A DNA stretch of 24,000 bases, taken from contig NC_016627.1 of NCBI RefSeq assembly GCF_000237085.1, forward strand, positions 1,960,118 through 1,984,117. Reading direction: 5' to 3'. Under the pieces are notes generated by a model that was given only the letters and a program-made list of their open reading frames with translations, was not told the origin of the DNA and did no database searches. Below are positions 3,031-22,038 of the stretch, piece after piece (position 1 is the stretch's first letter; each line of letters opens with the position of its first letter). Made by a program: the position numbers and the translations under genes. Source of the DNA: Acetivibrio clariflavus DSM 19732. GTDB lineage: Bacteria; Bacillota; Clostridia; Acetivibrionales; Acetivibrionaceae.

Positions 3031-3044
3031 AGGAGTACGATATC

Positions 3045-3485: not shown

Positions 3486-3535
3486 AACTTGATGTTATCA
3501 ATACAATATATTCTCTTTTTGATAAAATAAATAAT

Positions 3536-3586
3536 AAAGGACGCAGCTTAGGGTAGTGAAAGGTATTACCGAAAGTTACGTCCTTT
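3536..3586 (+). terminator. Long imperfect hairpin downstream of the regulator gene (weak terminator candidate)
   Basis: AAAGGACG (3536-3543) pairs with CGTCCTTT (3579-3586), with inner helices 3545-3549/3573-3577 and 3552-3555/3567-3570. The + strand tail is only TTTAATAT-like, so termination is uncertain. Confidence 0.3.
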
Positions 3587-3773
3587 AATATACAAAATTC
3601 AAAAGAGTTGGTAATTTTAGAAAAGAAAGATTGAGAACATAAAAAATAAAGGATAACTTTTTTCTTTAGAAATTTGTATACATAACACTTCAATGAAAGT
3701 AAAGCGGCTTAATAAAGGTGCTTTTTTTGTGGTTTGAACCTTTCTGATTAAACTATAAGCCTAATTCTGCTAA

Positions 3774-3802
3774 TTGCTATTAAAATTATATAGTGTTAAA
3801 CT
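3774..3802 (+). promoter_or_regulatory. Candidate sigma-A type promoter for the aldo/keto reductase gene
   Basis: TTGCTA (3774-3779)-N17-TAAACT (3797-3802), about 95 nt upstream of ATG 3898. Confidence 0.3.
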
Positions 3803-3897
3803 GATAAATGAAGTAATGCAATATAAATGCCTCAACTACATTATGTAGAGTTTTATTTAAGATGTTAGGCTTCTGTATATCAATAGGAGGAAATACG

Positions 3898-5076: not shown

Positions 5077-5202
5077 GCTTATATTATTAACTGATGAAGG
5101 ATGGTTCAAAGTCTAAGATTTGAATAGTCATTAGAGTAAAAAATGAGTTCAGTGATGATGAGGTTGTAATTTCAGTTGAAAAGGAGTTGCCTTTGTTTTC
5201 CG

Positions 5203-5224
5203 TATCGAAAATGATTTTTCGATA
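5203..5224. promoter_or_regulatory. Perfect 9-bp inverted repeat, candidate operator upstream of the acyl-CoA synthetase gene
   Basis: TATCGAAAA (5203-5211)-tgat-TTTTCGATA (5216-5224), about 80 bp upstream of ATG 5306. Confidence 0.35.
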
Positions 5225-5305
5225 TTGAAATTATCTTATGATAAGGTTATCATTAAAAAATAATTTGTTATAAATAATTAACGATTAATAGATGTAAGGA
5301 GTATT

Positions 5306-7054
5306 ATGAGAATGAGTGCCGATATAAAGTATCCACTGTACGAGACCACAGTCTTTGAAAATTTCCGGGTGATGGTCGAAAATGTGGCCAGAAAATATCC
5401 CGACAGAATAGCATATTCCTATAAAAAAGACCCGCGTGATACCAATACTGTTGATGTAACCTTCAGCGAAGTGCGTGATTATGTGAGGAATTTGGGTACA
5501 GAACTGATATCTTTAGGCTGTACTGATAAAAAGGTTGCTATTGTAGGCGAAACTTCATATAACTGGATCTGCAGCTATTTTGCGCTGATGGCTATAGGGG
5601 CGATCGTTGTCCCGCTGGACAAGGATATGCCTGTAAATGAATTAACGGGGCTGCTCGATTTTGCCGAGTGTGAATATATTGTCTACAGCACTTCAGTTGA
5701 AGAAAAGATCATGCAGATTGGTGACAGCGTTCCAACATTAAAGACCTATATATGCATGGGCGAGCCAAAAATGGAGCCAGCCCTCAAGCTTTCGGATCTG
5801 GCTGAAAGGGGAAAGGCAAAATTCGAAAACGGAGATAATTCATACTATGATTATGAAATTGATCCCGACAGGCTTGCGACCATCGTATTCACATCGGGAA
5901 CAACAGGCAAGGGCAAGGGTGTTATGCTTTCCCAAAAAAATATAGCTTCAGACATGACACAGGGTATGTATCTCTTTGCCATAACACCAAAAACCATGTC
6001 AGTGCTTCCACCGCACCATACTTATTGCTCTACAGTGGTTTTTGTCGGACATTTTTCGCAGGGATGCACAACCTTTATTAACAGCGGACTTAAGTATTTC
6101 TTAAACGAAGTAAAGGAGCAGCAGCCCAGTCATTTGGTCCTGGTACCGTTATTCGTAGAAACTATGTATAAAAGGATATGGAACACAGCAGAAAAAAGCG
6201 GTAAGGCTAATATGCTAAAGCGTATGATAAAGGTTAGCAATTTCTTAAGGAAAATAGGCATAGATTTGCGGAGTGTTTTCTTTAAGAGCGTACTGGAGAA
6301 TTTTGGAGGCAAGCTGGAGATGATCATTTCGGGCGGTGCCGCCATCAACCAGGACATAATCGACTTTTTTGATGCCATTGGAATAACTATTCTTAACGGA
6401 TATGGTATAACCGAGTGTTCACCTTTGGTTTCATGTAACAGAAACAAGTATCAGAAAAAAGGCAGTGTCGGTATTCCGATAATAGGTGAGCAGGTCAAGA
6501 TCAAAGATCCTGATGAAAACGGAGAGGGAGAGATTTGTGTTAAGGGCCCCAATGTCATGCTTGGCTATTATAAGAATCCTGAAGCTACAGCTGCTGCATT
6601 TGATGAAGAAGGCTATTTCATGACAGGAGATTATGGAAGGCTAGACGATGAGGGGTGGCTATATATTACCGGCAGACTGAAGAATATCATTATTCTGAGC
6701 AATGGCAAGAATGTATATCCTGAGGAGATCGAACAAGAGGTACAAAGGATACCCGGCGTTTCGGAGGTTGTTGTTTATGCAGGGGAAACAAAGAATCAGA
6801 GCAATAAGGAAGTTATTGTTGCCGAGATATTCCCGGATTACGAATTACTCAAATTAAAAGGTATTGAGGGTGCGCAGGCTATTAAAGAATACTTCAATAA
6901 GGAGATAAAGAATGTAAACAGCAGAATGGCACCTCACAAGACCATCAGAAAGGTGAAGATCCGCGAGGAGGAATTTATTAAAAATACTTCAAAGAAAATA
7001 CTCCGTCATGCTATTGATAAGAGCATCGACAATGATGATTCCACAGAGGATTAA
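5306..7054 (+). CDS. AMP-dependent acyl-CoA synthetase (long-chain-fatty-acid--CoA ligase-like)
   Basis: AMP-binding motifs present: TSGTTGKGKGV, GYGITE and TGDYGRLDDEGWLYITGRLKNIIILSNGKNVYPEEIE. AAGGAG lies just upstream. An alternative start is ATG 5312. Confidence 0.88.
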   Translation: MRMSADIKYPLYETTVFENFRVMVENVARKYPDRIAYSYKKDPRDTNTVDVTFSEVRDYVRNLGTELISLGCTDKKVAIVGETSYNWICSYFALMAIGAIVVPLDKDMPVNELTGLLDFAECEYIVYSTSVEEKIMQIGDSVPTLKTYICMGEPKMEPALKLSDLAERGKAKFENGDNSYYDYEIDPDRLATIVFTSGTTGKGKGVMLSQKNIASDMTQGMYLFAITPKTMSVLPPHHTYCSTVVFVGHFSQGCTTFINSGLKYFLNEVKEQQPSHLVLVPLFVETMYKRIWNTAEKSGKANMLKRMIKVSNFLRKIGIDLRSVFFKSVLENFGGKLEMIISGGAAINQDIIDFFDAIGITILNGYGITECSPLVSCNRNKYQKKGSVGIPIIGEQVKIKDPDENGEGEICVKGPNVMLGYYKNPEATAAAFDEEGYFMTGDYGRLDDEGWLYITGRLKNIIILSNGKNVYPEEIEQEVQRIPGVSEVVVYAGETKNQSNKEVIVAEIFPDYELLKLKGIEGAQAIKEYFNKEIKNVNSRMAPHKTIRKVKIREEEFIKNTSKKILRHAIDKSIDNDDSTED

Positions 7055-7201
7055 GAAAGTGGATATATTTTAATGCAAGAACAATATAATCAGGATATTG
7101 TAGTAAAAACTTAGTACAAAAGAGTATTGAGTTGGTAATAAGTTCGTCCCTTTTAAGATTGTAAAAGATATTAAAGACGAAGTGGATTATATAAAGTGAA
7201 A

Positions 7202-7223
7202 GCCAGCGTCTTTAGGCGCTGGC
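7202..7223. terminator. GC-rich hairpin between convergent genes (candidate bidirectional terminator)
   Basis: GCCAGCG (7202-7208) pairs with CGCTGGC (7217-7223). On the - strand it is followed by TTTCACTTTATA. It lies 50 nt past the cdd stop and 150 nt past the acyl-CoA synthetase stop. Confidence 0.5.
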
Positions 7224-7272
7224 CGGTAACAAGCCTTATAGGTCTGAGTAATTGTTAATATCATTTCTTGTT

Positions 7273-7689
7273 TTATTTTTCCAAATCTTTTGGCCCAAAA
7301 CCCATGGGAAGAATTTGTTCCAGTGTAAAAATTTCATAATTTTCCGGATCTTTTGCAAGTATCACTTGGAAGGTTTTTGGGTCACAAAATTCCATCATGA
7401 CCTGACGGCACACACCGCACGGGGCACACAAATCCAGAGTGTCTGTTCCTTTTGGACCTCCGACAATGGCGATGGAGGAAAACTCTCTGACACCTTCGCT
7501 AACGGCTTTAAAGAAAGCAGTACGTTCAGCGCAGTTACCGGGGGTGTAGGCGGCATTTTCTATGTTGCAGCCGGTATACAGTTTCCCGTCTTTGGACAGT
7601 AGCGCTGCCCCAACTGCAAAATTAGAATAGGGTGAGTAGGATTGATTACGTGCTTGTAAAGCATGAGAAATTAACTCCGATGGTGTCAT
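7273..7689 (-). CDS. cdd: Cytidine deaminase
   Basis: 138 aa with the zinc-ligand motifs CAERTAFFKAVSEG and CAPCGVCRQV. Similarity to homotetrameric Cdd such as the B. subtilis enzyme runs end to end. RBS GGAAAGGAG lies upstream. Confidence 0.93.
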   Translation of the reverse strand: MTPSELISHALQARNQSYSPYSNFAVGAALLSKDGKLYTGCNIENAAYTPGNCAERTAFFKAVSEGVREFSSIAIVGGPKGTDTLDLCAPCGVCRQVMMEFCDPKTFQVILAKDPENYEIFTLEQILPMGFGPKDLEK

Positions 7690-7699
7690 AAATATGCTC

Positions 7700-7737
7700 C
7701 TTTCCTATAAGTAAAGGGTAAAAGGTTACTTTTGCCC
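7700..7737 (-). terminator. Hairpin plus U-rich tail between the last permease gene and cdd (weak internal terminator or attenuator candidate)
   Basis: The arms are 7716-7724 and 7729-7737 (GGGTAAAAG/CTTTTGCCC on the + strand). On the - strand the stem carries one C-A mismatch and is followed by TTTACTTATAGG. Confidence 0.3.
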
Positions 7738-7744
7738 GTCTCAT

Positions 7745-8680
7745 TTACTTCTGCTTTAAATACGGCTTGCCGCTGGCAGCAGGTACTCGGGATTTACCGA
7801 CAAACAGCACCAGCGTAATGATTGTCACGACATAAGGAATCATAGAAATCAGGTTTGGTGATATTACGTTGCCTGACCCCAGTAAGACCTTTAAGCCGTT
7901 GCACAATCCGAACAGCAGACAGGCTCCCATGGCCCCGTGAGGGGTGAATTTACCGAAGATAACAGCGGCGATGGCGATGAAACCCTGACCGACAATAACT
8001 TCGGGACGGAATTGACTGACAGTGCACAAGGTAACATACGCACCGCCCAGACCGGCGAAAAAGCCGGAAGCAATCACAGCTAAGTAGCGGATGCGAAATA
8101 CGTTGATGCCTTGGGTTTCGCAAGCCTTGGGATGTTCACCAACAGCCCGAAGACGCATTCCGAATCTGGTCTTATAGAAAATAAACCATACGACAGCCAC
8201 TGCGACAAAGGCCAAATAAGTAGCAACGTAGGTGTTAAGTACATTGTTCCAAAAACTTCCCACTTCGAAAATACCGTTGAACAACTTGGGCAGCTTTTGG
8301 GATGTGTCCAGTGGAGGAGTGTTCGAAGATTGCTCAAACAGGGCTTTACATACGAAGATGGCTACACCGGGCGCCAAAAAGTTTATGGCAGTACCGGAGA
8401 TGGTCTGGTCTGCACCGAAGGAGACACAGGCTATGGCGTGAATCAGTCCAAAGAGAGCACCAACCAGTCCACCGCATATAAAGGCCAGCCAGGCATTACC
8501 GGTGAAATGAGCTACTGCAGCACCTACAAAAGCACCGATGGTCATCATGCCTTCAATACCAATGTTAATGACGCCACTGCGTTCTGAAAAAGTGGAGCCC
8601 AGTGCAGCATAAAGCAAAGGAGGTGTAGCTATCAGTGTGGCGTTAATAATCAGGCCGAGGTTTTTAATCAATTCTTCCAT
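7745..8680 (-). CDS. ABC transporter permease, nucleoside/BMP-type (NupQ/RnsD-like)
   Basis: 311 aa polytopic membrane protein. Its ATG overlaps the upstream permease stop (TAATG at 8680). The operon context is a BMP lipoprotein plus a double ATPase. Confidence 0.85.
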   Translation of the reverse strand: MEELIKNLGLIINATLIATPPLLYAALGSTFSERSGVINIGIEGMMTIGAFVGAAVAHFTGNAWLAFICGGLVGALFGLIHAIACVSFGADQTISGTAINFLAPGVAIFVCKALFEQSSNTPPLDTSQKLPKLFNGIFEVGSFWNNVLNTYVATYLAFVAVAVVWFIFYKTRFGMRLRAVGEHPKACETQGINVFRIRYLAVIASGFFAGLGGAYVTLCTVSQFRPEVIVGQGFIAIAAVIFGKFTPHGAMGACLLFGLCNGLKVLLGSGNVISPNLISMIPYVVTIITLVLFVGKSRVPAASGKPYLKQK

Positions 8681-9798
8681 TATTTCTCCTCCTTATTCTT
8701 AAGCCGTCTTGTAATTAAATAGCGGAATACATGTGATATAGCTATAAAGAGCACGATAGTGCCCATAATAATGTCAACCACTTCGGTGGGAGCATCAATT
8801 AAATTGAGCTTGGAACCACCGTATTTCATGGCACCGTAAAACAGCCCGGAAAAAATACAGCCAATGGGGTGAGAGCTAGCAATTAGTGCAACGGTGATTC
8901 CCTGGAAGCCGAAGCCCTCCTGTCCTGCAAACTGGCTGATGCGCATGGAGTTACCCATCAGTTGTACGGCACCGCCTAGAGCCGCCAGCGCACCCGACAG
9001 GCTCATGGCGATATACATGGTCTTGTCGGAATTAATACCGCCGTATTTGGCTGCGTGAGGGTTAAGCCCAACGGCCTGTACTCTATAGCCAAAAGTGGTT
9101 TTTGTGAGAATAAACCAAATAGCAACTGCTGCAATTATTGCCAGTAAAATACCGTAATTGGCTTTATTACTCTGAAAAATATTCTGCAGCGATTGGGGAA
9201 GCAAAATTCTTGCCGATTCACGAATATCCTTGGAAGCTTCACCGCCGCCTACCTTGTGAATTGTTTTAGTGTTAATTACGTAGTTTGAGAGATAAAAGGC
9301 GATCCAATTGAACATGATGAAGGACAAAACCTCATTGATGCCGAACCGGACGCGAAGCACTGCTACCAGGAAGCTCCACACCATACCTGCTGCAATAGCT
9401 GCCAGCATACATAGCAATACGTGTAAAACAGGATGAGCGTCCACCAGGATTCCTACACACAAAGCGGCCAGTGAACCTACAACAAACTGACCTTCTGCAC
9501 CGATGTTGAAAACACCCATTTTGTAAGAAAAGGCCACGCTCAATCCCGTAAACACCAGCGGGGTTGCATAGATTACCGACCAAATGAGATACTTTGGACG
9601 GCTAAACACGCTGCTAAACAACTTTGCATATGCTTCCAGGGGACTGAAGCCGGCTGACCACAGAAAAATGCCACCGACCAGAAACCCGAAGAAAATAGCA
9701 ATAATGGTATATAGAGCATTTTGATAAATTAGACCTTGTACTTTAATTTTTAAAATGTTCTGAGAGGTCTCGCTATTATGATTAATCTTCTGTTTCAT
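8680..9798 (-). CDS. ABC transporter permease, nucleoside/BMP-type (NupP/RnsC-like)
   Basis: 372 aa polytopic membrane protein. AGGAGG lies 8 nt upstream of the ATG at 9798. The start overlaps the ATPase 3' end by 17 nt. Confidence 0.85.
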   Translation of the reverse strand: MKQKINHNSETSQNILKIKVQGLIYQNALYTIIAIFFGFLVGGIFLWSAGFSPLEAYAKLFSSVFSRPKYLIWSVIYATPLVFTGLSVAFSYKMGVFNIGAEGQFVVGSLAALCVGILVDAHPVLHVLLCMLAAIAAGMVWSFLVAVLRVRFGINEVLSFIMFNWIAFYLSNYVINTKTIHKVGGGEASKDIRESARILLPQSLQNIFQSNKANYGILLAIIAAVAIWFILTKTTFGYRVQAVGLNPHAAKYGGINSDKTMYIAMSLSGALAALGGAVQLMGNSMRISQFAGQEGFGFQGITVALIASSHPIGCIFSGLFYGAMKYGGSKLNLIDAPTEVVDIIMGTIVLFIAISHVFRYLITRRLKNKEEK

Positions 9799-11335
9799 TT
9801 TTGGTTCCTCCTGCCATCATCAGTCCCAGGACTTTTTCATTGGCCTTGTGGCCTGGTACACTGCCTACGATATTGCCATTGTAAATGACTTCAATCCGGT
9901 CGGAAAGGCTCATGATTTCATCCAGTTCAAAGGACACCAGCAGCACAGCTTTATTTTTATTGCGCTGTTCCACAATATATCGGTGAACAAACTCGATGGC
10001 GCCTACGTCCAAACCGCGAGTGGGATTTACTGCAATAAGCAAGTCCTTGTCGTTGGTGACCTCCCGGGCAATAATGACTTTCTGCTGGTTACCGCCGGAC
10101 AGCTTGCCAGCTTCTTTGGTGCCGCCTTCTGCACCGCGGATGTCAAATTTACCGACCAATTCTTCCGCATGCTTATAAATATCATCTTTCTTTAAAATGC
10201 CGTGTTTGGAGAAAGGAGGTTTAACATAATTTTGCAGCACCAGGTTGTAAGCTACCGAATATTCCAGTACCAGCCCGTGCTTCTGCCGGTCGGCCGGAAT
10301 GCTGGATACTCCGTTATCAAACAAAGTATGTGCATCGGCATTAAATAAATCCTTGCCGCCAATGATAACCTTGCCGGATTCGCCTTTTCTTAAGCCGGTT
10401 AAAATCTCCACCAGCTCGGTCTGGCCATTGCCGTCTACTCCGGCTAAACCCACAATTTCACCACGGCGCACTTTTAGGTTCAAGCCCTTAAGCACTTCAA
10501 CGCCGCGGTAATCCTTAGCGTGGAGATCCTGTATGTCAATAATGACTTCACCGGGTTCAATAGGCTTTTTGTCCACCACAAATTGAACATCGCGGCCTAC
10601 CATCATGGAAGCCAGATCGTGTTCACTGACAGCTTCCACATCGACAGTATTGATATATTTGCCTTGCCTGATAATAGTACATCTATCAGCCGATGCTTTG
10701 ATTTCCTTCAGCTTATGGGTAATTAGAATCACGGTTTTACCATCGGCTGTGAGATTGCGGATGATATTGATCAGTTCTTCGATTTCCTGCGGAGTCAGCG
10801 AGGCGGTGGGCTCATCAAGAATAAGGATGTTAGCACCTCGGTACAGTACCTTGAGGATTTCCACACGCTGCTGCATTCCTACCGAAATGTCTTCAATTTT
10901 GGCATCGGGATCCACATGCATTCCATAGCGCTCTGAAAGCTCTTTTACTTTCCGGCGTGCCTTTTTGATGTCAACCACCATAGCTTTAGTGGGTTCCATG
11001 CCGAGAATAATGTTTTCGGTAACAGTGAAGGGTTCCACCAACATAAAGTGCTGGTGCACCATGCCGATGCCAAGTTCAATGGCATGGCTCGGATTCTCAA
11101 TGTGCACAGGAGAGCCGAATATGGTAATGCTGCCCGATGTCGGTTTATACAGTCCATACAATATGTTCATCAGTGTGCTTTTTCCGGCGCCGTTTTCGCC
11201 AAGAATAGCGTGAACTTCACCTTTATAAACTGTTAGGTTGATGTGGTCGTTGGCCACGAAATTACCGAACTTTTTGACAATGTCAGTCATTTGAACGGCA
11301 ACTGTGTTGGGATCAAAATGGCTTGTTTTTTTCAA
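9782..11335 (-). CDS. ABC transporter ATP-binding protein with two ABC cassettes, nucleoside/BMP-type (NupO/RnsB-like)
   Basis: Cassette 1 has GENGAGKST, LSVGMQQRVEIL and ILILDEPTA. Cassette 2 has GVDGNGQTE, LSGGNQQK and LLIAVNPTRGLD. The most likely start is TTG at 11335, preceded by AAGGAGGG (9-nt spacing). The ORF-track start at 11446 would overlap the upstream gene and has no RBS. An alternative start is ATG 11290. Confidence 0.88.
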   Translation of the reverse strand: MKKTSHFDPNTVAVQMTDIVKKFGNFVANDHINLTVYKGEVHAILGENGAGKSTLMNILYGLYKPTSGSITIFGSPVHIENPSHAIELGIGMVHQHFMLVEPFTVTENIILGMEPTKAMVVDIKKARRKVKELSERYGMHVDPDAKIEDISVGMQQRVEILKVLYRGANILILDEPTASLTPQEIEELINIIRNLTADGKTVILITHKLKEIKASADRCTIIRQGKYINTVDVEAVSEHDLASMMVGRDVQFVVDKKPIEPGEVIIDIQDLHAKDYRGVEVLKGLNLKVRRGEIVGLAGVDGNGQTELVEILTGLRKGESGKVIIGGKDLFNADAHTLFDNGVSSIPADRQKHGLVLEYSVAYNLVLQNYVKPPFSKHGILKKDDIYKHAEELVGKFDIRGAEGGTKEAGKLSGGNQQKVIIAREVTNDKDLLIAVNPTRGLDVGAIEFVHRYIVEQRNKNKAVLLVSFELDEIMSLSDRIEVIYNGNIVGSVPGHKANEKVLGLMMAGGTKNETED

Positions 11336-11408
11336 ATCCGTTTTTCCCTCCTTGTATATTTGTCTCACGGGAATTACGTGATGTATATGTATATATGGTT
11401 TATACAAT

Positions 11409-12251
11409 TCAAATGATAATAATATCTTTAAAGCCTTTGGCTGCAAGTAGTCTGGCGTAATATTCCATTTGTTCGCGTGCAGGGATTTTCAAAGTATCCT
11501 TATATTGCTGGCGAACACCTATAGGACGATAAGATATAAGTTTATATCGTATGGGACGAAGGGACAAGAAGCCGCTAAGCATGTCGCCGGTTTGTATAAT
11601 GGTTTGTTCTGCATCGAAAAGGCCGGGGGAAACTACTGTACGTACCTCATACAGTTTAGCCTTCGAGGCAAGAAACCTGGCATTTTTCAAGACAAGGGAA
11701 TTGTCCCATCCGGTTACCCGCTTGTGTTCTTCAGAGTTACCAGCTTTAATGTCAAGCATCACGCCGTCGGTGACGGCCAGCAAATCAGGATATTGTTCAA
11801 AATCAAGAGTCCCATTGGAATCAATTAGGGTGGACAGGCCATGAGCCTGTGCCAGGGTAAACAGCTCAGTTAAAAACTCCGGATAAAGTGTACATTCCCC
11901 GCCCGAAACGGTGATACCGCGGATAAACGGAATTTGATTTTCTACCTTTTGCCAAACCTGTTCCGGTGTCATATCGAGGGTTTTGGGACTGCTGTCATGG
12001 GGACATACGTTAATGCACCTGTCACAATGGATGCATTTGGTGCTGTTGTAAACAACTTTCTGTCCTTCGAAGCTTAATGCCCCTGTGGGGCATGAGTTGA
12101 TACATGTCCCACAGTGCACACATTTGCCTCTTGTTTCAGGGTTGTGGCAATACAAACAGTTCATATTACAACCTTGCAGAAAGATGGCTGTACGGTTACC
12201 AGGGCCGTCAACGGTGCTAAAGGGTATGATTTTGTTGACTGTGACCACCAT
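11409..12251 (-). CDS. yjjW: Glycyl-radical enzyme activating protein (radical SAM, YjjW-like)
   Basis: Carries the CNMNCLYC radical-SAM CX3CX2C motif (12147-12170), the GRE-activase type N-terminus VDGPGNRTAIFLQGC, and two ferredoxin motifs, CVHCGTCINSCP and CIHCDRCINVCP. It starts 2 nt after the upstream GRE-like gene stop, with AAAGGTG upstream. Confidence 0.85.
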   Translation of the reverse strand: MVVTVNKIIPFSTVDGPGNRTAIFLQGCNMNCLYCHNPETRGKCVHCGTCINSCPTGALSFEGQKVVYNSTKCIHCDRCINVCPHDSSPKTLDMTPEQVWQKVENQIPFIRGITVSGGECTLYPEFLTELFTLAQAHGLSTLIDSNGTLDFEQYPDLLAVTDGVMLDIKAGNSEEHKRVTGWDNSLVLKNARFLASKAKLYEVRTVVSPGLFDAEQTIIQTGDMLSGFLSLRPIRYKLISYRPIGVRQQYKDTLKIPAREQMEYYARLLAAKGFKDIIII

Positions 12252-12253
12252 AA

Positions 12254-13798
12254 TTAGCGCACCTTTCTATCAAAAACTTTTCCGTTTTGGGCTGCGCCCA
12301 TTCCCAAAGCGGTAGTGTCATGCAATACATTCTGACCACTTTTTAGCTTTTCGATTTCCGAGCGCTTGACCAAATAGCCCGTAATACGGATAACATCGCT
12401 GTTCTTCTCATAGAAGGACAGATAGCGTAATTCCTTGCGGAAAGAACCTTTTACAATATCCAGTACATATTCCGGATTTTGGTGAACAGTGATATCCATA
12501 GGGAAAATGTCACCCGTTCCGGATGGGAAATATTTATGGAAATGATTGATAACCATGAGGTGATCAATCATTTCGTCGGGTTCTTCCCCGATGGGGATAC
12601 GCGTGCCCGGTGAGATATTTTTATCCTCTGAAATTCCTACTTGCGCATGAAGCAGAAAATGACCGCCGGTTATTTCGCAATATGGGTTATGGTGTTTTTC
12701 GTTGAATTCATATATCTGCCTGATAATGGATTCACCAAGTTCGGTGGCATACTCGTCATGACCGAAGCGACCGGGACGACCTTCTTTTTCCAGTAGGATG
12801 TTGACACACTCCGCCAGGCCTACCAGGCCAAACATGGCAGTAAAACGATTGCGACTGATAAAGCCTTCCTTAGCCAGGAAGTTATTTTCAAAGAAGCCGC
12901 TTTCTTCGACTTCGAAACGGATACGGGCGTCCATATACCGCGCCATGATGTCCATAACATAGGGCAGTTGGTTGGTTTTAAAATCCTCAATTCCGCTGGC
13001 ACGTTTGGCAATATTGCCGAGAATCAGGCGGCAAAGGGTGTATGATCCGCCGCCTAACGGCAATCCGTTATAGCAGCTGGCAATGACGTAATTTTCGCCA
13101 AGTTCCTGTCTGAACATACAGTGGTTGGCAAAGCTGGGCTTGGCCGAACGTAAAGCTGTTTTTACAGCCTGAATGGCGAAGTCATCATCGGTAACACCTT
13201 CTTCGTATTTTAAGGTCAGATTGGGCACGGCCTGCATAAGCTCTGTCTCTAGCTCAAGCAGCAAGCGACCGGTACGTGTAGGCATAGGGCCGATATTTGC
13301 ATGGGAGAAGGAGTCAAGAATAGTACGGTCCACATGCACCAAAAAGCCTCGCAGAAGTTTTTTGGCAGTAGCGTCGTCCACATTTTGTATAAAAGGTTCC
13401 AGCAGCATGTCCAACTGCCCCAGATAGACGGGGAAGTTGGTCACGCTGGGAACATGCTTGTAAAAAATAAGCAGAGAATTAAGTGCTTCATACAAGTCGG
13501 TAGGGGGCATAAGTTGCAGAAACCGGCTGCCTTCTTTCATGAATTTGGCGTAGTCGGGGATTATATATCGCGGGCGAAGAGGAGCGTGCCCCTCATTAAG
13601 GTCGCATATGCATTTTTTATCTTCCGGGACGTTCATCAGCTCGTCCAATCCTTCCGGCAAATCCAGTACTTCCAGAAGAGAATCGGCAGCATTGGCCAGT
13701 GAAGCAACCTTTTGCTCGTGAGTGAGTGTTGGACTTTTAATTATATCCAGTATTTTTTCGCGTGTTTCGTTCACACGCTGCATGGAAATATCTCTCAA
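12254..13798 (-). CDS. yjjI: YjjI-like (DUF3029) putative glycyl radical enzyme, substrate unknown
   Basis: 514 aa (E. coli YjjI is about 516 aa). The C-terminal glycyl-radical fingerprint is VIRITGYLV, with G474 encoded at 12377-12379. It sits immediately upstream of a GRE activase. The start is TTG 13798, with GGGTGG 7 nt upstream; an alternative is ATG 13783. The family assignment is from memory of family features, not from a search. Confidence 0.7.
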   Translation of the reverse strand: MRDISMQRVNETREKILDIIKSPTLTHEQKVASLANAADSLLEVLDLPEGLDELMNVPEDKKCICDLNEGHAPLRPRYIIPDYAKFMKEGSRFLQLMPPTDLYEALNSLLIFYKHVPSVTNFPVYLGQLDMLLEPFIQNVDDATAKKLLRGFLVHVDRTILDSFSHANIGPMPTRTGRLLLELETELMQAVPNLTLKYEEGVTDDDFAIQAVKTALRSAKPSFANHCMFRQELGENYVIASCYNGLPLGGGSYTLCRLILGNIAKRASGIEDFKTNQLPYVMDIMARYMDARIRFEVEESGFFENNFLAKEGFISRNRFTAMFGLVGLAECVNILLEKEGRPGRFGHDEYATELGESIIRQIYEFNEKHHNPYCEITGGHFLLHAQVGISEDKNISPGTRIPIGEEPDEMIDHLMVINHFHKYFPSGTGDIFPMDITVHQNPEYVLDIVKGSFRKELRYLSFYEKNSDVIRITGYLVKRSEIEKLKSGQNVLHDTTALGMGAAQNGKVFDRKVR

Positions 13799-13852
13799 TT
13801 GATTGCCACCCTTCTTTGGATAATTAAGGTTGTTTTGCTTAAATAGTTAGAA

Positions 13853-14911
13853 TTAGTCGTCTAATTCGTAGATGTTACCGTATTTTGCTTCAAATTCATC
13901 TTTGGTTTTCGGAACGGTAATTTTACCGCTGAGGATGTCCTGTTTAGCCTGGTTTACATAGTCAAGAACTTCCTTAGGCAAGTTGGTGGTAGTAGGAGCG
14001 ATGTCCACACCTGCGGACTTTAGATCATAAGTGATGATACCGGATTTGAAATTGCCTTCCTTAACGGCTTTAGCAATATCAAAGCATGCATTGTCAACAC
14101 GTTTCATAGCAGAGGTCAGAATATTTTCAGGAGCGAGAGGGGACTGGTCACTGTCTACACCGATTGCCCATTTGCCTGCATCTTTACAGCCTTCGATTAC
14201 TCCCAGACCTGTGCCGCCTGCTGCATGGAAGATTACGTCCGCACCGTTGGTGATCATTGTAGTAGCAGCAGATTTACCGGTTTCGGTGCTTCCGAAAGAG
14301 TTAGCATTGAACTGCAGGATAGTAGCATTGGGGTTGGCATCTTTAACTCCGGCAAGATACCCATACCCGAACTCGTTCATGGTCTGGCTGACCATACCGA
14401 CAACGAAGCCTACTTTGTTTGTCTTGGTCATTTTACCGGCAACAAGACCAACCAGATAAGAAGCCTGGCTCTGTTCAAACATCAGGCAGGTAACGTTGGG
14501 CAAATTGATGGATGCATCGTCGATGATGGCAAACTTCTGATTGGGATTAGCTTCAGCTGCTTTTTTAGTGGCATCAGCCAACATGTATCCTACACAGATG
14601 ATGAGGTCATAGCCTTCATCGATAAAAGCCTCAATGTTGGGAGCATAGTCGGCATCGGTTGCAGATTCGGCATAGCGAACTTCTACCCCAAGTTCTCTTT
14701 GAGCGCGCTGAAGACCTTCCCAGGCAGATTGGTTGAAGGAACCGTCGTTTACACCGCCAATGTCGGTAACCATACCGATCTTAATCTTCTTGCCACCGCT
14801 GTCGTTGTTATTGTTATTATTGTTGTTAATGTTTTCAGGTTTCTTTCCGCTGCATGCGGTCATTGAAAAGACCATTATTATCGATAATAGTAATGCTAGA
14901 AACTTTTTCAT
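13853..14911 (-). CDS. BMP-family (BmpA/PnrA/NupN-like) ABC substrate-binding lipoprotein, nucleoside-binding type
   Basis: Signal peptide with lipobox (LLSIIMVFSMTAC), a poly-Asn/Gly linker, and BMP-family core motifs GMVTDIGGVNDGSFNQSAWEG and HAAGGTGLGV. AAAGGAG lies 8 nt upstream. Confidence 0.9.
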   Translation of the reverse strand: MKKFLALLLSIIMVFSMTACSGKKPENINNNNNNNNDSGGKKIKIGMVTDIGGVNDGSFNQSAWEGLQRAQRELGVEVRYAESATDADYAPNIEAFIDEGYDLIICVGYMLADATKKAAEANPNQKFAIIDDASINLPNVTCLMFEQSQASYLVGLVAGKMTKTNKVGFVVGMVSQTMNEFGYGYLAGVKDANPNATILQFNANSFGSTETGKSAATTMITNGADVIFHAAGGTGLGVIEGCKDAGKWAIGVDSDQSPLAPENILTSAMKRVDNACFDIAKAVKEGNFKSGIITYDLKSAGVDIAPTTTNLPKEVLDYVNQAKQDILSGKITVPKTKDEFEAKYGNIYELDD

Positions 14912-14994
14912 GTCACTATCTCCTTTTCAATATATTTTTTATTTATTTTTTACTTTTCAGCATTGTTTAATTTATCTGAAACCTAAATTGTTTT

Positions 14995-15705
14995 TTAAAT
15001 AATTCCCAGTGCAACTTCAATCATATTTTTGAAGCCTAGCTGACGTTCCTGAGAAGATAGCTGTGTACCTTTGTAAATGTGGTCAGATATAGACAGGATA
15101 CACAAAGCATTTTTTCCTGCCTTGGCTGCATTCATATACAAAGCTGCAGCTTCCATTTCGATACACAACACGCCCATACTCTTCCAGGCATCGTTAGCAC
15201 CTTTATTGGCGTTGTAGAACACATCTGTGGAAAGAACATTGCCGATGGCAACGCTAATTTCTTTTTTGCGCGCTTCCTCAATAGCTTTTTGCATCAGCAC
15301 AAAACTAGCAATGGGTGCAAAAGTGCCGGGAAGTTGGTATTGGCTGGCATAATTGGAATCAGTGCAGGCTCCCATAGCAATGACAAGATCTTTTAGTTCC
15401 AGATCATCGCTTAAAGCACCGGCTGAGCCTATGCGGATGATATTGTCCACATCGTAAAAATTAAAAAGCTCATAGGAATAAATTCCGATAGAGGGAATAC
15501 CCATACCGTGTCCCATAACAGACACCGGCTTTCCTTGATAAGTACCGGTAAAACCTAACATATTGCGAACAGTATTAAAGCAGGTAACATTTTCTAAATA
15601 GGTTTCAGCAATAAACTTTGCACGCAGTGGATCACCGGGCATAAGCACCGTTTTTGCAATTTGCCCTTCTTCTGCTGCGTTATGTGGAGTTGGCACTCTG
15701 CTCAT
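14995..15705 (-). CDS. deoD: Purine nucleoside phosphorylase, DeoD type
   Basis: Strong similarity to E. coli DeoD across its length (VLMPGDPLRAKFIAETYLE, MLGFTGTYQGKPVSVMGHGMGIPS, CIEMEAAALY, LSISDH). RBS AAGGAGGTGA lies upstream. Confidence 0.95.
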   Translation of the reverse strand: MSRVPTPHNAAEEGQIAKTVLMPGDPLRAKFIAETYLENVTCFNTVRNMLGFTGTYQGKPVSVMGHGMGIPSIGIYSYELFNFYDVDNIIRIGSAGALSDDLELKDLVIAMGACTDSNYASQYQLPGTFAPIASFVLMQKAIEEARKKEISVAIGNVLSTDVFYNANKGANDAWKSMGVLCIEMEAAALYMNAAKAGKNALCILSISDHIYKGTQLSSQERQLGFKNMIEVALGII

Positions 15706-15887
15706 GTTTCACCTCCTTGTATATGGTATTGCTTTCCGGAACCTTAATTGTAACTAATCATATTTTTTCTCCTTTTGGAAAAATTATTATCAAAAGAAAG
15801 GATATACTTTTCTGAAATAAAAGCTGTTACACGTATTTATAAAGGACACTGTAAATTCAAAGATCAAAAGTGCCTTTTATATTTTAG

Positions 15888-15929
15888 CACACGATGTCGA
15901 ATTATACAATATAATGTCGAAAGTGTGAC
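15888..15929 (-). promoter_or_regulatory. Candidate deoD-operon promoter bracketed by two direct repeats (operator candidate)
   Basis: On the - strand: GTCACA (15929-15924)-N17-TATAAT (15906-15901). The direct repeat ATGTCGAA (+ strand) occurs at 15894-15901 and 15914-15921, 20 bp apart. CACAC and GTGTG flank the pair. Confidence 0.35.
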
Positions 15930-16044
15930 TTTGCCCGTGAGGGTATGATTAGGCAAAGAAAATGGTTAATGCATGGTGTGACTATTATATTTACGGTTTA
16001 CTAAAAAGAGATACTGAAAAAATTAATTAATTATTCTAAGTAGT

Positions 16045-16073
16045 TTGTGTTATAAATTCCAATAAGTTATAAT
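16045..16073 (+). promoter_or_regulatory. Candidate sigma-A type promoter for the PNP/UDP-family gene
   Basis: TTGTGT (16045-16050)-N17-TATAAT (16068-16073), about 70 nt upstream of ATG 16144. RBS AAGGTGGTGA follows. Confidence 0.45.
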
Positions 16074-16143
16074 ATAGGGTAATCAAGAGTATGTTTTTTA
16101 AATCACAGCAGTAGATTATTATTAATAAGGTGGTGATTTTGTC

Positions 16144-16914
16144 ATGTTAAACGAAAGCTTATTTCCAATTCTAGAATTTGATTCAAATAAACACGCCAAG
16201 ATTAATCCCTCAAGTGTTGTTAACAAGAAGCAAGTACCTAAAGCATGTGTTATTACTTTTTTCAAGGAAGTAATCAGAAAAAAACTGGAACGAGGTGAAT
16301 TGGAGCAAATTGGTACAAGTCCTTCGGAAACAATAGATATTCCAATTTATGAAACTAAATATAATGGTTGTTCTGTGGGTCTTGTTGGTGGTTTTGTCGG
16401 AGCAGCAGGTTCGGCAGCATTGTTGGAAGAATTGATAGCATCAGGATTTGAAAAATTTATAGTTTGTGGTGGCGCTGGCGTTTTAAAGAAAGGTATTCAA
16501 GTAGGTCATTTAGTATTGCCTTACTCTGCGGTAAGAGATGAAGGTGTATCATATCATTATATCGAGCCATCACGTGAAATAGAATGCAACCCCGATGCTG
16601 TAAAAGTTATTGAGAGAATATTAAATAAAGAAAAAATTCCGTTTATTAAAGCAAAGACATGGACAACAGATGCAATTTTTAGAGAAACTGAGGATAAAAT
16701 AGCAAAAAGAGTTTCAGAAGGCTGTGTTACCGTTGAAATGGAAGCAGCAGCATTTTTCGCTGTATCTAAATTCAGGAACGTTTTATTGGGACAGATTTTG
16801 TACTGCGGTGACGATTTGAGCGGAATCGAATGGGACAGCCGCTCCTGGCATAGCAGAGATTTAATAAGATCCAATCTCGTAGACTTATGCCTAAAAATAG
16901 CTACAGAATTATAG
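16144..16914 (+). CDS. Nucleoside phosphorylase family protein (PNP_UDP_1 superfamily, uridine-phosphorylase-like); specificity unknown
   Basis: Shows VTVEMEAAAFFAV (the EME motif of the PNP/UDP family), the glycine-rich GLVGGFVGAAGSAA, and LPYSAVRDEGVSYHY, which resembles the Udp substrate loop. Confidence 0.75.
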   Translation: MLNESLFPILEFDSNKHAKINPSSVVNKKQVPKACVITFFKEVIRKKLERGELEQIGTSPSETIDIPIYETKYNGCSVGLVGGFVGAAGSAALLEELIASGFEKFIVCGGAGVLKKGIQVGHLVLPYSAVRDEGVSYHYIEPSREIECNPDAVKVIERILNKEKIPFIKAKTWTTDAIFRETEDKIAKRVSEGCVTVEMEAAAFFAVSKFRNVLLGQILYCGDDLSGIEWDSRSWHSRDLIRSNLVDLCLKIATEL

Positions 16915-16945
16915 CTTAGAACAAGGGACGGTTCTTTGTTCTAAG
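16915..16945 (+). terminator. Perfect 10-bp hairpin immediately after the stop codon (terminator candidate lacking a clear U-tract)
   Basis: CTTAGAACAA (16915-16924) pairs with TTGTTCTAAG (16936-16945) and starts 1 nt after TAG 16912-16914. The downstream sequence is A-rich rather than T-rich. Confidence 0.35.
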
Positions 16946-17482
16946 ATGAAAAATAAAACTGTATGCAGCGATTTTTGATTTATGCATTTATGATATTTAC
17001 CATAGAGGATTTCTTAGATTCAATCCGATATAGAAACACCTTTGTCCGAACTTATAACAAGATTGATAATAATTTTATTACTTGATGGATTCGTATTGTA
17101 ATTTAATAAAAAGTATATATAACAATTAATTGATGATAATTTCTTGTATTTATAAGAGGTATCTTGAAGGCAAGATAAGCCTAAAACGGCAGGTAGAGCA
17201 TTATGGATTGTTTTACCGTTTGCCTGAGGGATACCTTGCTTTGTTAAGGGAAAATATAATAACTGTTGCAAAGACACTTTTAAAATATTTGAACGGGTAA
17301 GAGGACTATGATGAGTGAGTAGCAATAATCTTTAAAGATTCAAGAAGCATTTTTACAGAAAATGATAAAGGGGCAAAATCCCGGATATATATTTATGAAG
17401 GTGAAAAATATTCAAAAGATAGATAGATTTTGGTAACGGATAGAAACTGAAGAAAGTTCATGAAAAGGAGAGGAAACTTGAT

Positions 17483-17962
17483 TTGAATAAAAAGTATTTT
17501 GCATATGGAAGCTGTACAAACTTTGAATCTTTCGGAGACACTATGAAAAAAGCAGAATGTGAAGATAAATTCAGTGTTTGCGGCATTGGCAGGCTTAATG
17601 ACTATCGTCTGGCTTTCACGAGATATTCCATGAAGTGGGGAGGAGGCGTTTTAAATATAATAAAATCGCCTGGGGATTATGTTTTAGGAGTAGTTTATGA
17701 TATTCCGGAACAGGCGGTATCGGCAATAGATAAAAGAGAGGGAGCGCCAAAATATTATAAGAGAATTGAGGATGTTGAAGTTGAAGTGGAAAATAAGCGG
17801 GTTAAAGTATTTACCTATGCAGTGGTTGAGAAGGATTTTGATGAAATCAAACCCGCATTGGAATATTTTGATACAGTGTATAAAGGAATGAAACAACACT
17901 TCCCTTCTGAATATGTAAACAAATATTTAATTGAGCATTGTAAAAACCGTTTTGGAATGTAA
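17483..17962 (+). CDS. Gamma-glutamylcyclotransferase-like (AIG2/GGCT fold) protein
   Basis: The N-terminus YFAYGSCTNFESF matches the GGCT YGS motif. YRLAFTRYS...GGVLNIIKSPGDYVLGVVYDI and IDKREGAPKYYKR are typical of AIG2-like proteins. The start is TTG 17483, with AAAGGAGAGG 9 nt upstream. Confidence 0.7.
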   Translation: MNKKYFAYGSCTNFESFGDTMKKAECEDKFSVCGIGRLNDYRLAFTRYSMKWGGGVLNIIKSPGDYVLGVVYDIPEQAVSAIDKREGAPKYYKRIEDVEVEVENKRVKVFTYAVVEKDFDEIKPALEYFDTVYKGMKQHFPSEYVNKYLIEHCKNRFGM

Positions 17963-17994
17963 AATCAGCGAATGAAAAAATCAAAATATACAGA

Positions 17995-19224
17995 TCATAC
18001 TACCTGAAAGATATAAAACTTTAGGTAGTCTGTTTCCGGAACATTCCACAGGATAGGATGATCCGGCGCCTGCTGGCGTGCTTCAATCTGTCTGAGGGAT
18101 ACGGAAGCATCCTTTGCTGCACTTGCCAACATTTTGCGGAACAGGTCATCGGTCATGAAATGGCTGCAACTGCAGGTAGCAAGATATCCACCACGAGGCA
18201 GCAGTTTCATAGCTTTAAGGTTAATCTCCTTATATCCGCGGGCAGCAGACTGTACCGTCTTTCGGGATTTGGTAAAAGCCGGCGGGTCAAGGATTATATA
18301 GTCGTAATCTTTACATTTTTGTTCTACCAGTTTTGTCAACAGGTCAAATACGTCCTCGCACAAAAAATCCATTTTATCGTCCAAACCGTTGTGTACAGCA
18401 TTTGATTTTGCCAGGTCAATAGCTGACTGTGAGATGTCTACACAGGTCACGTGTTCAGCTCCTCCCAACGCTGCATTAAGACCGAAGGAACCGGTATGGG
18501 TAAAGCAGTCCAGCACCCGTTTTCCTTTGGCAATACGGGCCACAGCCAGGCGATTATACTTCTGATCCAGGAAAAATCCGGTTTTTTGTCCGTTTTCCAC
18601 ATCTACCAGATATTTCACGCCGTTTTCGCATATCTCAGTTACAGCGGATTCAGGAACGGGTATGTTATCGGAACGGTACCAGCCTTTATATTCTGAAAGG
18701 TTTTCCTTTGCACGCAAGGCAATGTCATTACGTTCATAAATTCCGGTAATGGTTTCGCCCATTTCGGTAAGCACATCCCAGATAGCTTGGTAAATCGTGT
18801 CTTTGACAAGTTCCATACCGAGGCAGGTAATCTGTACCGACAGGATGCTGCCAAAACGATCCACTGTCAGACCGGGCATTTGATCAGCTTCACCGTGAAT
18901 TATGCGGCAACAGGCGAAATCTGCACCGGGCATGACGGTTTTACGGTAATTAACGGCATACTCCACACGTCTGCGCCAAAAGCGAGCGTCAAATACATCA
19001 TTGGCGTTGCTGGAAATAAGTCGAACAGTAATCTTGCTGGCATTATTGTAAAAGCCAGTACCGATATAGGCATTTCCGGCAAGCACATCCACCAGTTCGC
19101 CGTTTTGGGGTGTACCTTCTATTTTGCGAATCTCTTCACCGTATATCCACGGATGCCCGCTTTTTGCACTGCGCTCCGCTTTTGGAGATATCATGACTTT
19201 TGGATATTGCCGTTTCTGTTTCAT
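17995..19224 (-). CDS. rlmI: Class I SAM-dependent rRNA methyltransferase, RlmI-like (PUA-like N-terminal domain plus MTase)
   Basis: SAM-binding motif VLDCFTHTGSFGLNAA, catalytic region DYIILDPPAFTKS, and N-terminal GHPWIYGEEI typical of RlmI/YwbD. ATG 19224 is preceded by AAAGGTGA, and the ORF-track GTG 19233 lies inside that RBS. Confidence 0.8.
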   Translation of the reverse strand: MKQKRQYPKVMISPKAERSAKSGHPWIYGEEIRKIEGTPQNGELVDVLAGNAYIGTGFYNNASKITVRLISSNANDVFDARFWRRRVEYAVNYRKTVMPGADFACCRIIHGEADQMPGLTVDRFGSILSVQITCLGMELVKDTIYQAIWDVLTEMGETITGIYERNDIALRAKENLSEYKGWYRSDNIPVPESAVTEICENGVKYLVDVENGQKTGFFLDQKYNRLAVARIAKGKRVLDCFTHTGSFGLNAALGGAEHVTCVDISQSAIDLAKSNAVHNGLDDKMDFLCEDVFDLLTKLVEQKCKDYDYIILDPPAFTKSRKTVQSAARGYKEINLKAMKLLPRGGYLATCSCSHFMTDDLFRKMLASAAKDASVSLRQIEARQQAPDHPILWNVPETDYLKFYIFQVV

Positions 19225-19572
19225 TTGTATCACCTTTAGAAATAGAATTTTTATGCGCTGATTTTACCACATTTCTCTTCTGCCTTCAACGGTGGGCATC
19301 ATTATAATGTGATTAAAAGGAATACTTTATTCTGAATTTAATGAAAAAGATTGCAGTGTACACCTTCCTTTAATGTATTTGATCTTATAAATGTAAACTG
19401 CCAAAATAAAACGGGAGGACGCTTCCAAAACACTGAAAAATAAGCTTTATTAAGCTATTCTCCGGGGGTTAAGTATCATTATTGGAGGTGTTTTTTAGTT
19501 TTATGTTCATCAAATCATAAGAGAAGTGGAATTTTTCAGGCATCAGTTTTATAATGTAGGCAGAATTAATAA

Positions 19573-19601
19573 TTGACAATGATTGTTTTATATTTGATAA
19601 T
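19573..19601 (+). promoter_or_regulatory. Candidate sigma-A type promoter for the ior-paaK operon
   Basis: TTGACA (19573-19578)-N17-GATAAT (19596-19601), about 70 nt upstream of ATG 19674. Confidence 0.5.
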
Positions 19602-19673
19602 AATTATAATATGCAGTGAAAAATTTATAGCTTATAAATATTGATTATAAATAAAGTATTGGGGGATAGGTTA

Positions 19674-21410: not shown

Positions 21411-21413
21411 AAA

Positions 21414-21986: not shown

Positions 21987-22038
21987 ACAGATTATGGTGT
22001 TTAATTATGAATAAAAAATAATAGGGGGTAAAAGATGT

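Follow-up and report, generated by a model that had tools for sequence, protein, structure and literature searches.

We analysed a 24,000-nucleotide stretch of the Acetivibrio clariflavus DSM 19732 genome (contig NC_016627.1, positions 1,960,118 to 1,984,117 of the forward strand; hereafter the window), in which a small, oxygen-sensitive glycyl radical enzyme (GRE) of the YjjI family and its YjjW-type activase are encoded on the - strand within what is probably a single operon for nucleoside uptake and salvage. The linkage of YjjI with nucleoside genes is genuine and recurs in many bacteria, though not in all members of the family. The reading that we favour, tentatively and with somewhat less than even confidence, is that one operon imports nucleosides and splits them, and that YjjI would remove a hydroxyl group by radical chemistry from the ribose or other pentose (or pentose phosphate) derived from these nucleosides, the product then passing to DeoC or to salvage. 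This would amount to a new anaerobic branch of nucleoside catabolism, as had been proposed in a preliminary description of this DNA made from its letters and its open reading frames (ORFs). All computational checks suggested there gave the predicted outcome, and no observation that had been named as refuting was made.

The yjjI gene (12254-13798, - strand) encodes 514 amino acids (aa) from a TTG start located 7 nt after the ribosome-binding site GAAGGGTGG. The preliminary description had reported an ORF of this size with a glycyl-radical fingerprint, and both could be read directly from the DNA: the codon of G474, the predicted glycyl-radical site in R471-I-T-G474-Y475, lies at 12377-12379 (-) in the context S-D-V-I-R-I-T-G-Y-L-V-K-R, sits 40 residues from the C-terminus and fits the GRE motif R-V-x-G-[FWY]. 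The assignment of the pair to the YjjI and YjjW families was borne out by scores above all curated cut-offs, with YjjI matching PF11230 at 753.7 bits (E=8.7e-227, cut-off 23, profile positions 1-485 of 485) and TIGR04040 at 694.6 bits (cut-off 498.3, profile positions 2-497 of 497). The exact YjjI sequence is present in public data, and its 90% identity cluster holds Cthe_1577 of Acetivibrio thermocellus together with A. clariflavus proteins. The predicted thiyl-radical cysteine is C242 (codon 13073-13075, -), which lies in an S-C-Y-N loop and is invariant in 23 diverse members; in profile alignments C242 is aligned with C419 of pyruvate formate-lyase (PFL), G474 with PFL G734, and the G474 motif with RITGYL of NrdD. 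An exhaustive HMMER search over 1.8 billion representatives gave 532 YjjI matches, mostly fragments, and the family is compact, with ∼20 full-length clusters at 50% identity and with full-length representatives of intact C-terminus sharing 39% identity or more with the query. Conservation had been expected for the Gly of R-[IV]-[TS]-G-[YF], and this Gly, like the Cys of S-C-[YF]-N, is invariant across all intact full-length representatives in the family alignment. Moreover, 32 columns are invariant across the 23 diverse members and all of these residues are present in the window protein, among them E69, R77, Y78, D130, D157, H166, N193, S241, C242, N244, R257, E311, H384, Q386, D392, R400, R471, G474 and R511. 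The Cys residues of YjjI are those at 63, 65, 227, 242, 256, 331 and 374 only, and they form no CxxC pair. C65, in an I-C-D motif, was considered as a second catalytic Cys and rejected, as H, Y or D replaces it in several family representatives.

The predicted structure leads to the same class. An AlphaFold2 model of YjjI (pLDDT 78, pTM 0.79) adopts the GRE barrel fold, the assignment of the ten-stranded alpha/beta barrel thus resting on a predicted rather than a solved structure, and in a Foldseek search of the PDB all 50 of the 50 matches listed are GREs (E-values 3.9e-13 to 2e-8), the top ones being class III ribonucleotide reductases (RNRs) and PFL-like dehydratases at about equal TMq of 0.6-0.68. 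A sequence search of the PDB with YjjI returned nothing at E<=1, and a search with the family profile returned only marginal local matches to PFL and NrdD. Family membership, motifs and modelled fold together identify YjjI as a GRE, with G474 and C242 as its predicted catalytic Gly and Cys.

The ATG of yjjW (11409-12251, - strand) follows the stop codon TAA of yjjI after 2 nt, and the gene encodes a radical-S-adenosylmethionine (SAM) activase of 280 aa, which scored 386.2 bits with TIGR04041 (cut-off 250.2); the next-best scores were those of eliminase-type GRE activases (160 bits), PflA (137) and NrdG (80 and 46). The motifs claimed for this protein earlier are present, namely CNMNCLYC at 12147-12170 (residues 28-35, with C28, C32 and C35 as the SAM-cluster cysteines) and two CX2CX2CX3C ferredoxin-type motifs at residues 44-54 and 73-83. 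Both TIGR04040 and TIGR04041 carry the NCBIfam label ‘hypoth_equivalog’.

To place the pair in its genomic context we used a scan with one genome per species, which returned only close relatives, 80 loci with 73-93% identical YjjI from Acetivibrio-like, Lachnospiraceae and related Clostridia. YjjI has at least one nucleoside gene nearby in 74 of these 80 species-level loci (47 of the 50 with full flanks). A Bmp gene is present in 67 of the 80, an ABC ATPase gene in 63, Cdd in 46, a second PNP-family gene in 42, DeoB in 33, DeoC in 31 and DeoD in 24; the second PNP-family gene is a uridine phosphorylase in L016, the sole one scanned (TIGR01718, 323 bits, cut-off 280). The most common position of yjjI is between the binding-protein gene and the ATPase gene, with yjjW usually among these genes too. 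Thus the position of the pair, which the preliminary description had called unusual, turned out to be the standard layout in the clade (74 of 80 related species). The gene order takes at least eight forms, and in some of them yjjI comes after the permease genes, with udp-deoB between yjjI and yjjW; because the linkage survives such rearrangement, we argue that it is under selection. In L041, L056 and L061 yjjI stands between two sets of ABC ATPase and permease genes, both of which come with a Bmp gene in L041; a displaced yjjW immediately precedes the second transporter set in L041 and L056, a pattern suggestive of duplication and recombination inside the cluster.

Breadth beyond the close relatives was obtained from the exhaustive representative search, a word-index search and a metagenome scan seeded with divergent representatives, the last of which gave 76 YjjI loci whose neighbouring ORFs were clustered without bias. 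YjjW is the sole near-universal neighbour (67 of 76 divergent loci), followed by a short ABC-type ATPase (12), an IU-type nucleoside hydrolase (PF01156), a PfkB kinase and a DNA-alkylation repair protein (9 each), and Bmp-type transporter genes (6-7). Nucleoside or ribose linkage was found in 17 of the 51 loci that have 5 kb of flank or more and in 7 of 19 clusters at 70% identity, and in 15 divergent loci the linked gene is at most three genes from yjjI. Hence the expectation that the nucleoside link would reach beyond the source genome was confirmed, since the link recurs in close and divergent loci, although it is not family-wide. The partners in the divergent loci are Bmp-ABC transporters, nucleoside hydrolases, nucleoside phosphorylases, DeoC, PsuG and ribokinase. 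A PfkB gene lies directly upstream of yjjI-yjjW in ∼7 loci, and a scan of one of these identified the product as a ribokinase (TIGR02152, 336.6 bits, cut-off 299.65); in L169 a pseudouridine-kinase-like (PsuK) PfkB gene and then PsuG lie near the pair, and further linked genes encode a pyrimidine-nucleoside phosphorylase (Pdp, TIGR02644, 539 bits), DeoC, a uridine-phosphorylase-like protein and a deaminase-type amidohydrolase. Among named isolates, Escherichia coli K-12 has yjjW-yjjI (b4379-b4380) divergent from deoCABD (b4381-b4384), so that the neighbourhood which the preliminary description had given is correct, with 257 bp between yjjI and deoC. Edwardsiella likewise has yjjIW head-to-head with deoCABD and a NupC-type transporter gene directly after yjjW. 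In Proteiniborus sp. DW1 (2438-18791 of that locus) yjjI-yjjW lies between rpoN and, downstream, the central glycolytic operon cggR-gapA-pgk-tpi-gpmI-eno, and a Bmp-ABC transporter is encoded two genes upstream of yjjI, just upstream of rpoN.

Some single loci of this divergent set are recorded here as side observations. In L131 (117-6170) the order is nucleoside hydrolase, FocA-type formate/nitrite transporter, alanine racemase, SNase-type nuclease, yjjI and yjjW; the FocA-type channel, a single case, would fit a formate-dependent (NrdD-like) or a formate-producing reaction. A dihydrofolate reductase gene overlaps the start of yjjI in Caminicella (L085, 8499-9008), and an MFS-transporter-thymidylate-kinase fusion is encoded two genes after yjjW in the Actinomycetota-type locus L170 (13078-15150); both neighbours are thymidylate-related and may hint at DNA-precursor supply. 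In another Actinomycetota-type locus (L145, 8694-9893) a thioredoxin-fold protein (AhpC/TSA, Redoxin) is encoded directly upstream of yjjI, and in this one annotated case it could possibly act as a protein reductant, by analogy with the thioredoxin-dependent NrdD enzymes. Finally, a 2.9-kb contig of an E. coli assembly has a 574-aa ORF (P0124) in which the first ∼110 residues of DeoC are fused to YjjI from residue ∼57, seen once and probably an inversion or an assembly artefact, as deoC and yjjI are normally head-to-head.

The neighbours that are specific for a base vary between loci, being purine-specific (DeoD), pyrimidine-specific (Udp, Pdp, Cdd) or specific for C-nucleosides (PsuG), and those that handle the pentose recur, with phosphopentomutase (DeoB) and deoxyribose-phosphate aldolase (DeoC) common and ribokinase and nucleoside hydrolase also present. 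Because purine- and pyrimidine-specific neighbours both occur, the constant partner would be the pentose, and the context data therefore seem to narrow the substrate towards the pentose and away from the base. The same observations bear on the alternative that YjjI degrades or modifies the nucleobase released by DeoD or Cdd, through radical ring opening, decarboxylation or C-N cleavage. For this, cdd and amidohydrolase-type deaminase genes are found among the neighbours and some GREs are decarboxylases or C-N lyases according to PDB descriptions, but purine-specific neighbours in some loci and pyrimidine-specific ones in others leave no base common to all, and ribokinase-only units have no base-related gene at all, so that we consider a nucleobase substrate very improbable.

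The proposal that YjjI acts on the pentose can be written as a sequence of steps. The operon would import nucleosides and yield base and pentose; under anoxic conditions YjjW, with SAM and its [4Fe-4S] clusters, would place a radical on G474 of YjjI; the radical would move from G474 to C242, and the resulting thiyl radical would abstract a hydrogen atom from the substrate. The substrate would be a ribosyl or pentose (phosphate) moiety from the imported nucleosides, most likely ribose-5-phosphate or ribose-1-phosphate, and the chemistry would be the radical loss of the ring hydroxyl adjoining the position of hydrogen abstraction, by analogy with ribonucleotide reductase or the GRE dehydratases, either reductive or by dehydration. 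The deoxy or deoxy-keto pentose phosphate thus formed would go to DeoC, giving glyceraldehyde-3-phosphate and acetaldehyde, or to deoxynucleoside salvage. Radical hydroxyl removal from a base-free ribose is proposed because YjjI is a small, NrdD-like enzyme with a single catalytic Cys and without allosteric domains, and a base-free substrate fits this small size and the lack of such domains. In its most specific form, YjjI would be a minimal, non-allosteric relative of NrdD that removes the 2-hydroxyl of ribose-5-phosphate or ribose-1-phosphate, reductively with formate or by redox-neutral dehydration; so precise a version is distinctly doubtful. If it were true, DeoC could split nucleoside-derived ribose, or deoxyribose could be supplied for DNA precursors without a nucleotide reductase, and the reaction would be new for GREs and a radical bypass of the pentose phosphate pathway.

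That YjjI acts instead on an intact or modified nucleoside is unlikely in our estimate. In this case it would be a ribonucleoside 2'-reductase that provides deoxynucleosides for salvage, or it would form a 3'-keto-2'-deoxy intermediate that expels a phosphorylase-resistant base. The position of the pair between the gene of the nucleoside-binding protein and the permease genes is in keeping with such a substrate, as are the resemblance of YjjI to NrdD in profile and fold, the dihydrofolate reductase of Caminicella and the thymidylate-kinase fusion of L170 with their hint at DNA-precursor supply, and PsuK/PsuG near the pair in L169. On the other hand, the ribokinase-yjjI-yjjW units and the DeoB and DeoC partners indicate a free sugar phosphate, no base-specific neighbour is constant, and YjjI has no recognisable nucleotide-specificity or allosteric domain and stays below the threshold of PF13597.

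Several observations weigh against radical hydroxyl removal from a nucleoside-derived pentose. Ribose phosphate is normally handled without radical chemistry, and the window has neither deoC nor deoB. YjjI also lacks the hallmarks of both model chemistries, having Asn instead of the eliminase Glu and no second NrdD Cys, and because these two residues are missing neither textbook mechanism is simply transferable. About two thirds of the divergent loci carry the pair without a nucleoside or ribose gene nearby. The pair of Proteus has no deo neighbour and no nucleoside or ribose gene within 8-10 kb; Caminicella, Tepidibacter and Haloimpatiens (YjjI 56-59% identical to that of the window) and Lutispora have stand-alone pairs, so that four of the five named Clostridia isolates examined have no such gene within 8-10 kb. 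Even among close relatives, six Lachnospiraceae species have no nucleoside gene near YjjI. Upstream of yjjI in five of them (L021, L038, L045, L050 and L054), within a few genes, there are instead genes for an alpha-amylase and a CxxCxxCC (PF03692) protein, which border yjjI in three, with yjjI at ∼10001-11545 of the locus (3414-4958 in L045); no YjjW was found within the fetched flanks (10-kb neighbourhood) in L045, L050 and L054, and the L021 contig ends ∼180 nt past yjjI. Moreover, the strong linkage comes largely from one clade of at least 73% identity, and because of this the linkage counts are not phylogenetically independent. In addition, the A. thermocellus activase was not detected in the proteome of cellobiose-grown cells (PMC3492117).

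Alternatively, the nucleoside linkage would be a matter of local genomic history, fixed inside the nucleoside cluster of one clade and next to deo in enterobacteria by chance or by shared regulation, and YjjI would have a general anaerobic role on an unrelated metabolite. Most divergent members form two-gene units that stand alone, in surroundings that differ from locus to locus (a thioredoxin-like protein, Sua5, a LuxR-type regulator, DUF1848, isochorismatase, aldehyde:ferredoxin oxidoreductase and others), and YjjI of the window is still 73-79% identical to that of Lachnospiraceae-type genomes, so that the whole cluster may have spread horizontally in the close clade. All family-invariant residues are common to linked and unlinked members, and therefore one substrate probably serves all. 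Against this, two phyla and at least 7 of 19 divergent clusters show the linkage, with partner genes and orders differing each time; apart from YjjW, no theme recurs other than nucleoside and ribose genes, and no alternative recurrent theme was found among the neighbours of the unlinked loci; and ∼7% of the neighbouring ORFs are nucleoside- or ribose-related. The genome-wide share of such ORFs is estimated from general knowledge, not by computation, to be well under 1%. For these reasons we give genomic history as the whole explanation a low probability, and continue with a role in pentose metabolism as the preferred reading.

In the window itself, the ORF map has eight co-directional - strand genes that run from 15705 to 7273 in the order deoD, bmp, yjjI, yjjW, ABC ATPase, two permeases and cdd, and the family matches agree with the preliminary description, which had placed the pair between the Bmp gene and the ATPase and permease genes, in a cluster that opens with deoD and closes with cdd. 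The first gene, deoD (14995-15705, -), encodes a DeoD-type purine nucleoside phosphorylase (NF004489, 348.8 bits, cut-off 230; TIGR00107, 308 bits) with 49% identity to E. coli DeoD. It is followed by the gene of a Bmp/PnrA-family substrate-binding lipoprotein of an ABC transporter (13853-14911, -; PF02608, 261.3 bits), the N-terminal signal peptide of which ends in ...MTAC. Downstream of yjjW come a 517-aa ABC ATPase with two ATP-binding cassettes (9782-11335, -; PF00005 twice), ABC permease 1 (8680-9798, -; PF02653, 154.5 bits), ABC permease 2 (7745-8680, -; PF02653, 161.8 bits) and, as the final gene, cdd for a tetrameric-type cytidine deaminase (7273-7689, -; TIGR01354, 142.6 bits, cut-off 113.65). 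The spacers given earlier (83, 54, 2 and 73 nt, then overlaps) hold exactly for an ATPase gene that begins with the TTG at 11335, and this TTG is the real start, being preceded by the ribosome-binding site AAGGAGGG and giving the length of 517 aa at which the gene is called in a public contig of identical sequence; the overlaps are 17 nt between the ATPase gene and permease 1 and 1 nt between the two permeases. The transporter set is complete for the Bmp/PnrA nucleoside ABC type (PF02608, PF00005 twice and PF02653 twice), and from its family and neighbours we infer that the ligand is a nucleoside; the NCBIfam ‘B6 transporter’ models scored far under their cut-offs with the window transporter proteins.

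The eight genes at 7273-15705 (-) would form one operon, and co-transcription is supported indirectly because the recognised nucleoside genes are all on the YjjI strand in 80 of 80 related loci. The preliminary description had seen no strong hairpin inside the operon, and a scan of 6900-16300 likewise found no convincing - strand terminator between deoD and cdd. The best-scoring - strand site in this interval is a terminator-like hairpin at 7201-7224 (-), with an 8-bp stem containing 6 G-C pairs and ∼50 nt past cdd, which is the probable end of the operon; the remaining - strand candidates are weak and all lie within genes. A candidate promoter upstream of deoD, at 15901-15929 (-), consists of GTCACA, 17 nt and TATAAT (10 of 12 consensus positions), a consensus match of a kind that is not enriched compared with shuffled sequence. 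The deoD leader also has a five-codon mini-ORF (M-I-S-Y-N, 15744-15761, -) behind a strong AAAGGAG site and a 13-nt inverted repeat at 15838-15881 (TATAAAGGACACT / AGTGCCTTTTATA, arms separated by 18 nt), neither of which is kept in the closest relative, L002. An Rfam scan of the window found no riboswitch or other family at gathering thresholds, with only a chance-level match in the deoD leader. Divergently from the operon, 438 bp upstream of deoD, a gene at 16144-16914 (+) encodes a 256-aa protein of the PNP_UDP_1 phosphorylase superfamily that fits no curated subfamily (best match AMP nucleosidase, 54 bits against a cut-off of 264) and has the same position in three identical public contigs. 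Beyond the operon, 17483-23343 holds genes for a GGACT-family protein, a SAM methyltransferase, a two-subunit indolepyruvate-type ferredoxin oxidoreductase and an AMP-binding ligase, identities that come from the Pfam annotation of the identical contig L088 and have no apparent link to YjjI.

Published data on these proteins are few. In the searchable full-text literature, a scope that leaves out subscription journals, we found no biochemical or genetic characterisation of the YjjI family and, in line with the preliminary description, no assigned substrate for YjjI or YjjW. The sole published functional suggestion is a 2011 guess from co-expression of a role in nitrogen metabolism, and the other mentions found are in omics tables, in FNR and CRP tables and in the A. 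thermocellus proteome cited above. E. coli yjjI is listed among the operons directly activated by FNR (PMC3688515), and for CRP, chromatin immunoprecipitation (ChIP) places peaks of the deo control region within yjjI and in the spacer between yjjI and deoC (PMC4287617); the FNR and CRP results fit an anaerobic role tied to deo regulation. YjjI is widespread, being present in E. coli, Salmonella, A. thermocellus and many gut Lachnospiraceae. To our knowledge it is probably the last orphan GRE of E. coli, given the ligand-bound PDB entries of PflD and YbiW. The neighbourhood evidence provides this family, one of few GRE families that are still orphans, with a short list of candidate substrates that can be tested, namely ribose, ribose-1-phosphate, ribose-5-phosphate and ribonucleosides, each with or without formate. 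If the ribose hypothesis were true, the anaerobic scavenging of nucleosides and RNA by gut and cellulolytic bacteria would include an additional, radical step, and the result would bear on the relation of deoxyribose chemistry to the evolution of ribonucleotide reductase.

Compared with the characterised GREs, YjjI combines features of several classes. PFL has the Cys pair C418-C419, whereas YjjI has S241-C242 at the aligned positions, with the Ser invariant; this single Cys therefore excludes C-C cleavage of the PFL type. The GRE eliminases (glycerol/propanediol dehydratase, CutC and HypD) have a general-base Glu in C-x-E, whereas YjjI has C242-Y243-N244 with N244 invariant. An Asn at the Glu position lowers the case for membership of the eliminases, and a dehydratase-like mechanism could still operate through other conserved acid/base residues. 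In common with the PFL-like eliminases (PflD, YbiW, HypD, glycerol dehydratase and CutC), YjjI has a single catalytic Cys and an activase with two extra [4Fe-4S] motifs, and the eliminase structure 8id0 matched the YjjI model at TMq 0.68, but YjjI is ∼270-300 residues shorter and the sequence similarity is marginal. PDB descriptions of PflD and YbiW show bound 1,5-anhydrohexitol-6-phosphates, and these enzymes thus offer a precedent for a GRE that dehydrates a cyclic sugar phosphate.

NrdD is the other near relative. YjjI shares with it the glycyl radical barrel (top Foldseek matches 9dau and 8p23, TMq 0.62-0.67) and an identical RITGYL Gly motif, and hhalign gave 89.7% probability to E. coli NrdD over 332 columns as against 70.6% to PflB; a ribose-based substrate would be a further common feature if the pentose proposal is right. 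These likenesses, with NrdD among the best structural and profile matches, are what would be expected if YjjI were a minimal class III RNR or a spare glycyl-radical module supporting one. However, PF13597 (NRDD) scored 21.3 bits with YjjI, under its gathering threshold of 26.2, the second active-site Cys of NrdD (C175 in E. coli) falls in an alignment gap after R77-Y78 of YjjI and has no conserved counterpart, and the ATP cone (no match) and the C-terminal Zn-binding CxxC pairs are missing as well. Moreover, YjjI is ∼200 residues shorter than NrdD, its activase is of the ferredoxin-insert type and not of the NrdG type, and E. coli keeps a separate nrdDG, so that an RNR function, direct or supporting, appears extremely unlikely. 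Because it lacks the defining features of each characterised class, YjjI is placed in a small GRE family of its own between NrdD and the PFL-like enzymes.

The closest known system is the YjjI (b4380) and YjjW (b4379) pair of E. coli, the founding members of PF11230/TIGR04040 and TIGR04041, which also score above the curated cut-offs and to which the window proteins are 41% and 44% identical, respectively. The two pairs have in common their length, the Gly motif, the S-C-Y-N loop, the order of enzyme and then activase, and neighbours of nucleoside catabolism; they differ in that the E. coli genes overlap and form a separate unit transcribed away from deoCABD, whereas the window pair is a same-strand insert in a transporter operon. 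YjjI is thus a catalogued but uncharacterised family, and its arrangement does not make a new kind of system, since it is common in the clade and genomes sequenced before contain it. Classical Bmp/PnrA operons of Firmicutes (bmpA-nupABC, and nupNOPQ of Bacillus subtilis), which occur with deoD, cdd and deoC, are not known to include a radical enzyme. The window operon has the same transporter families and accessory catabolic genes as these, and what is added, here and in 74 of the 80 relatives, is yjjI and usually yjjW.

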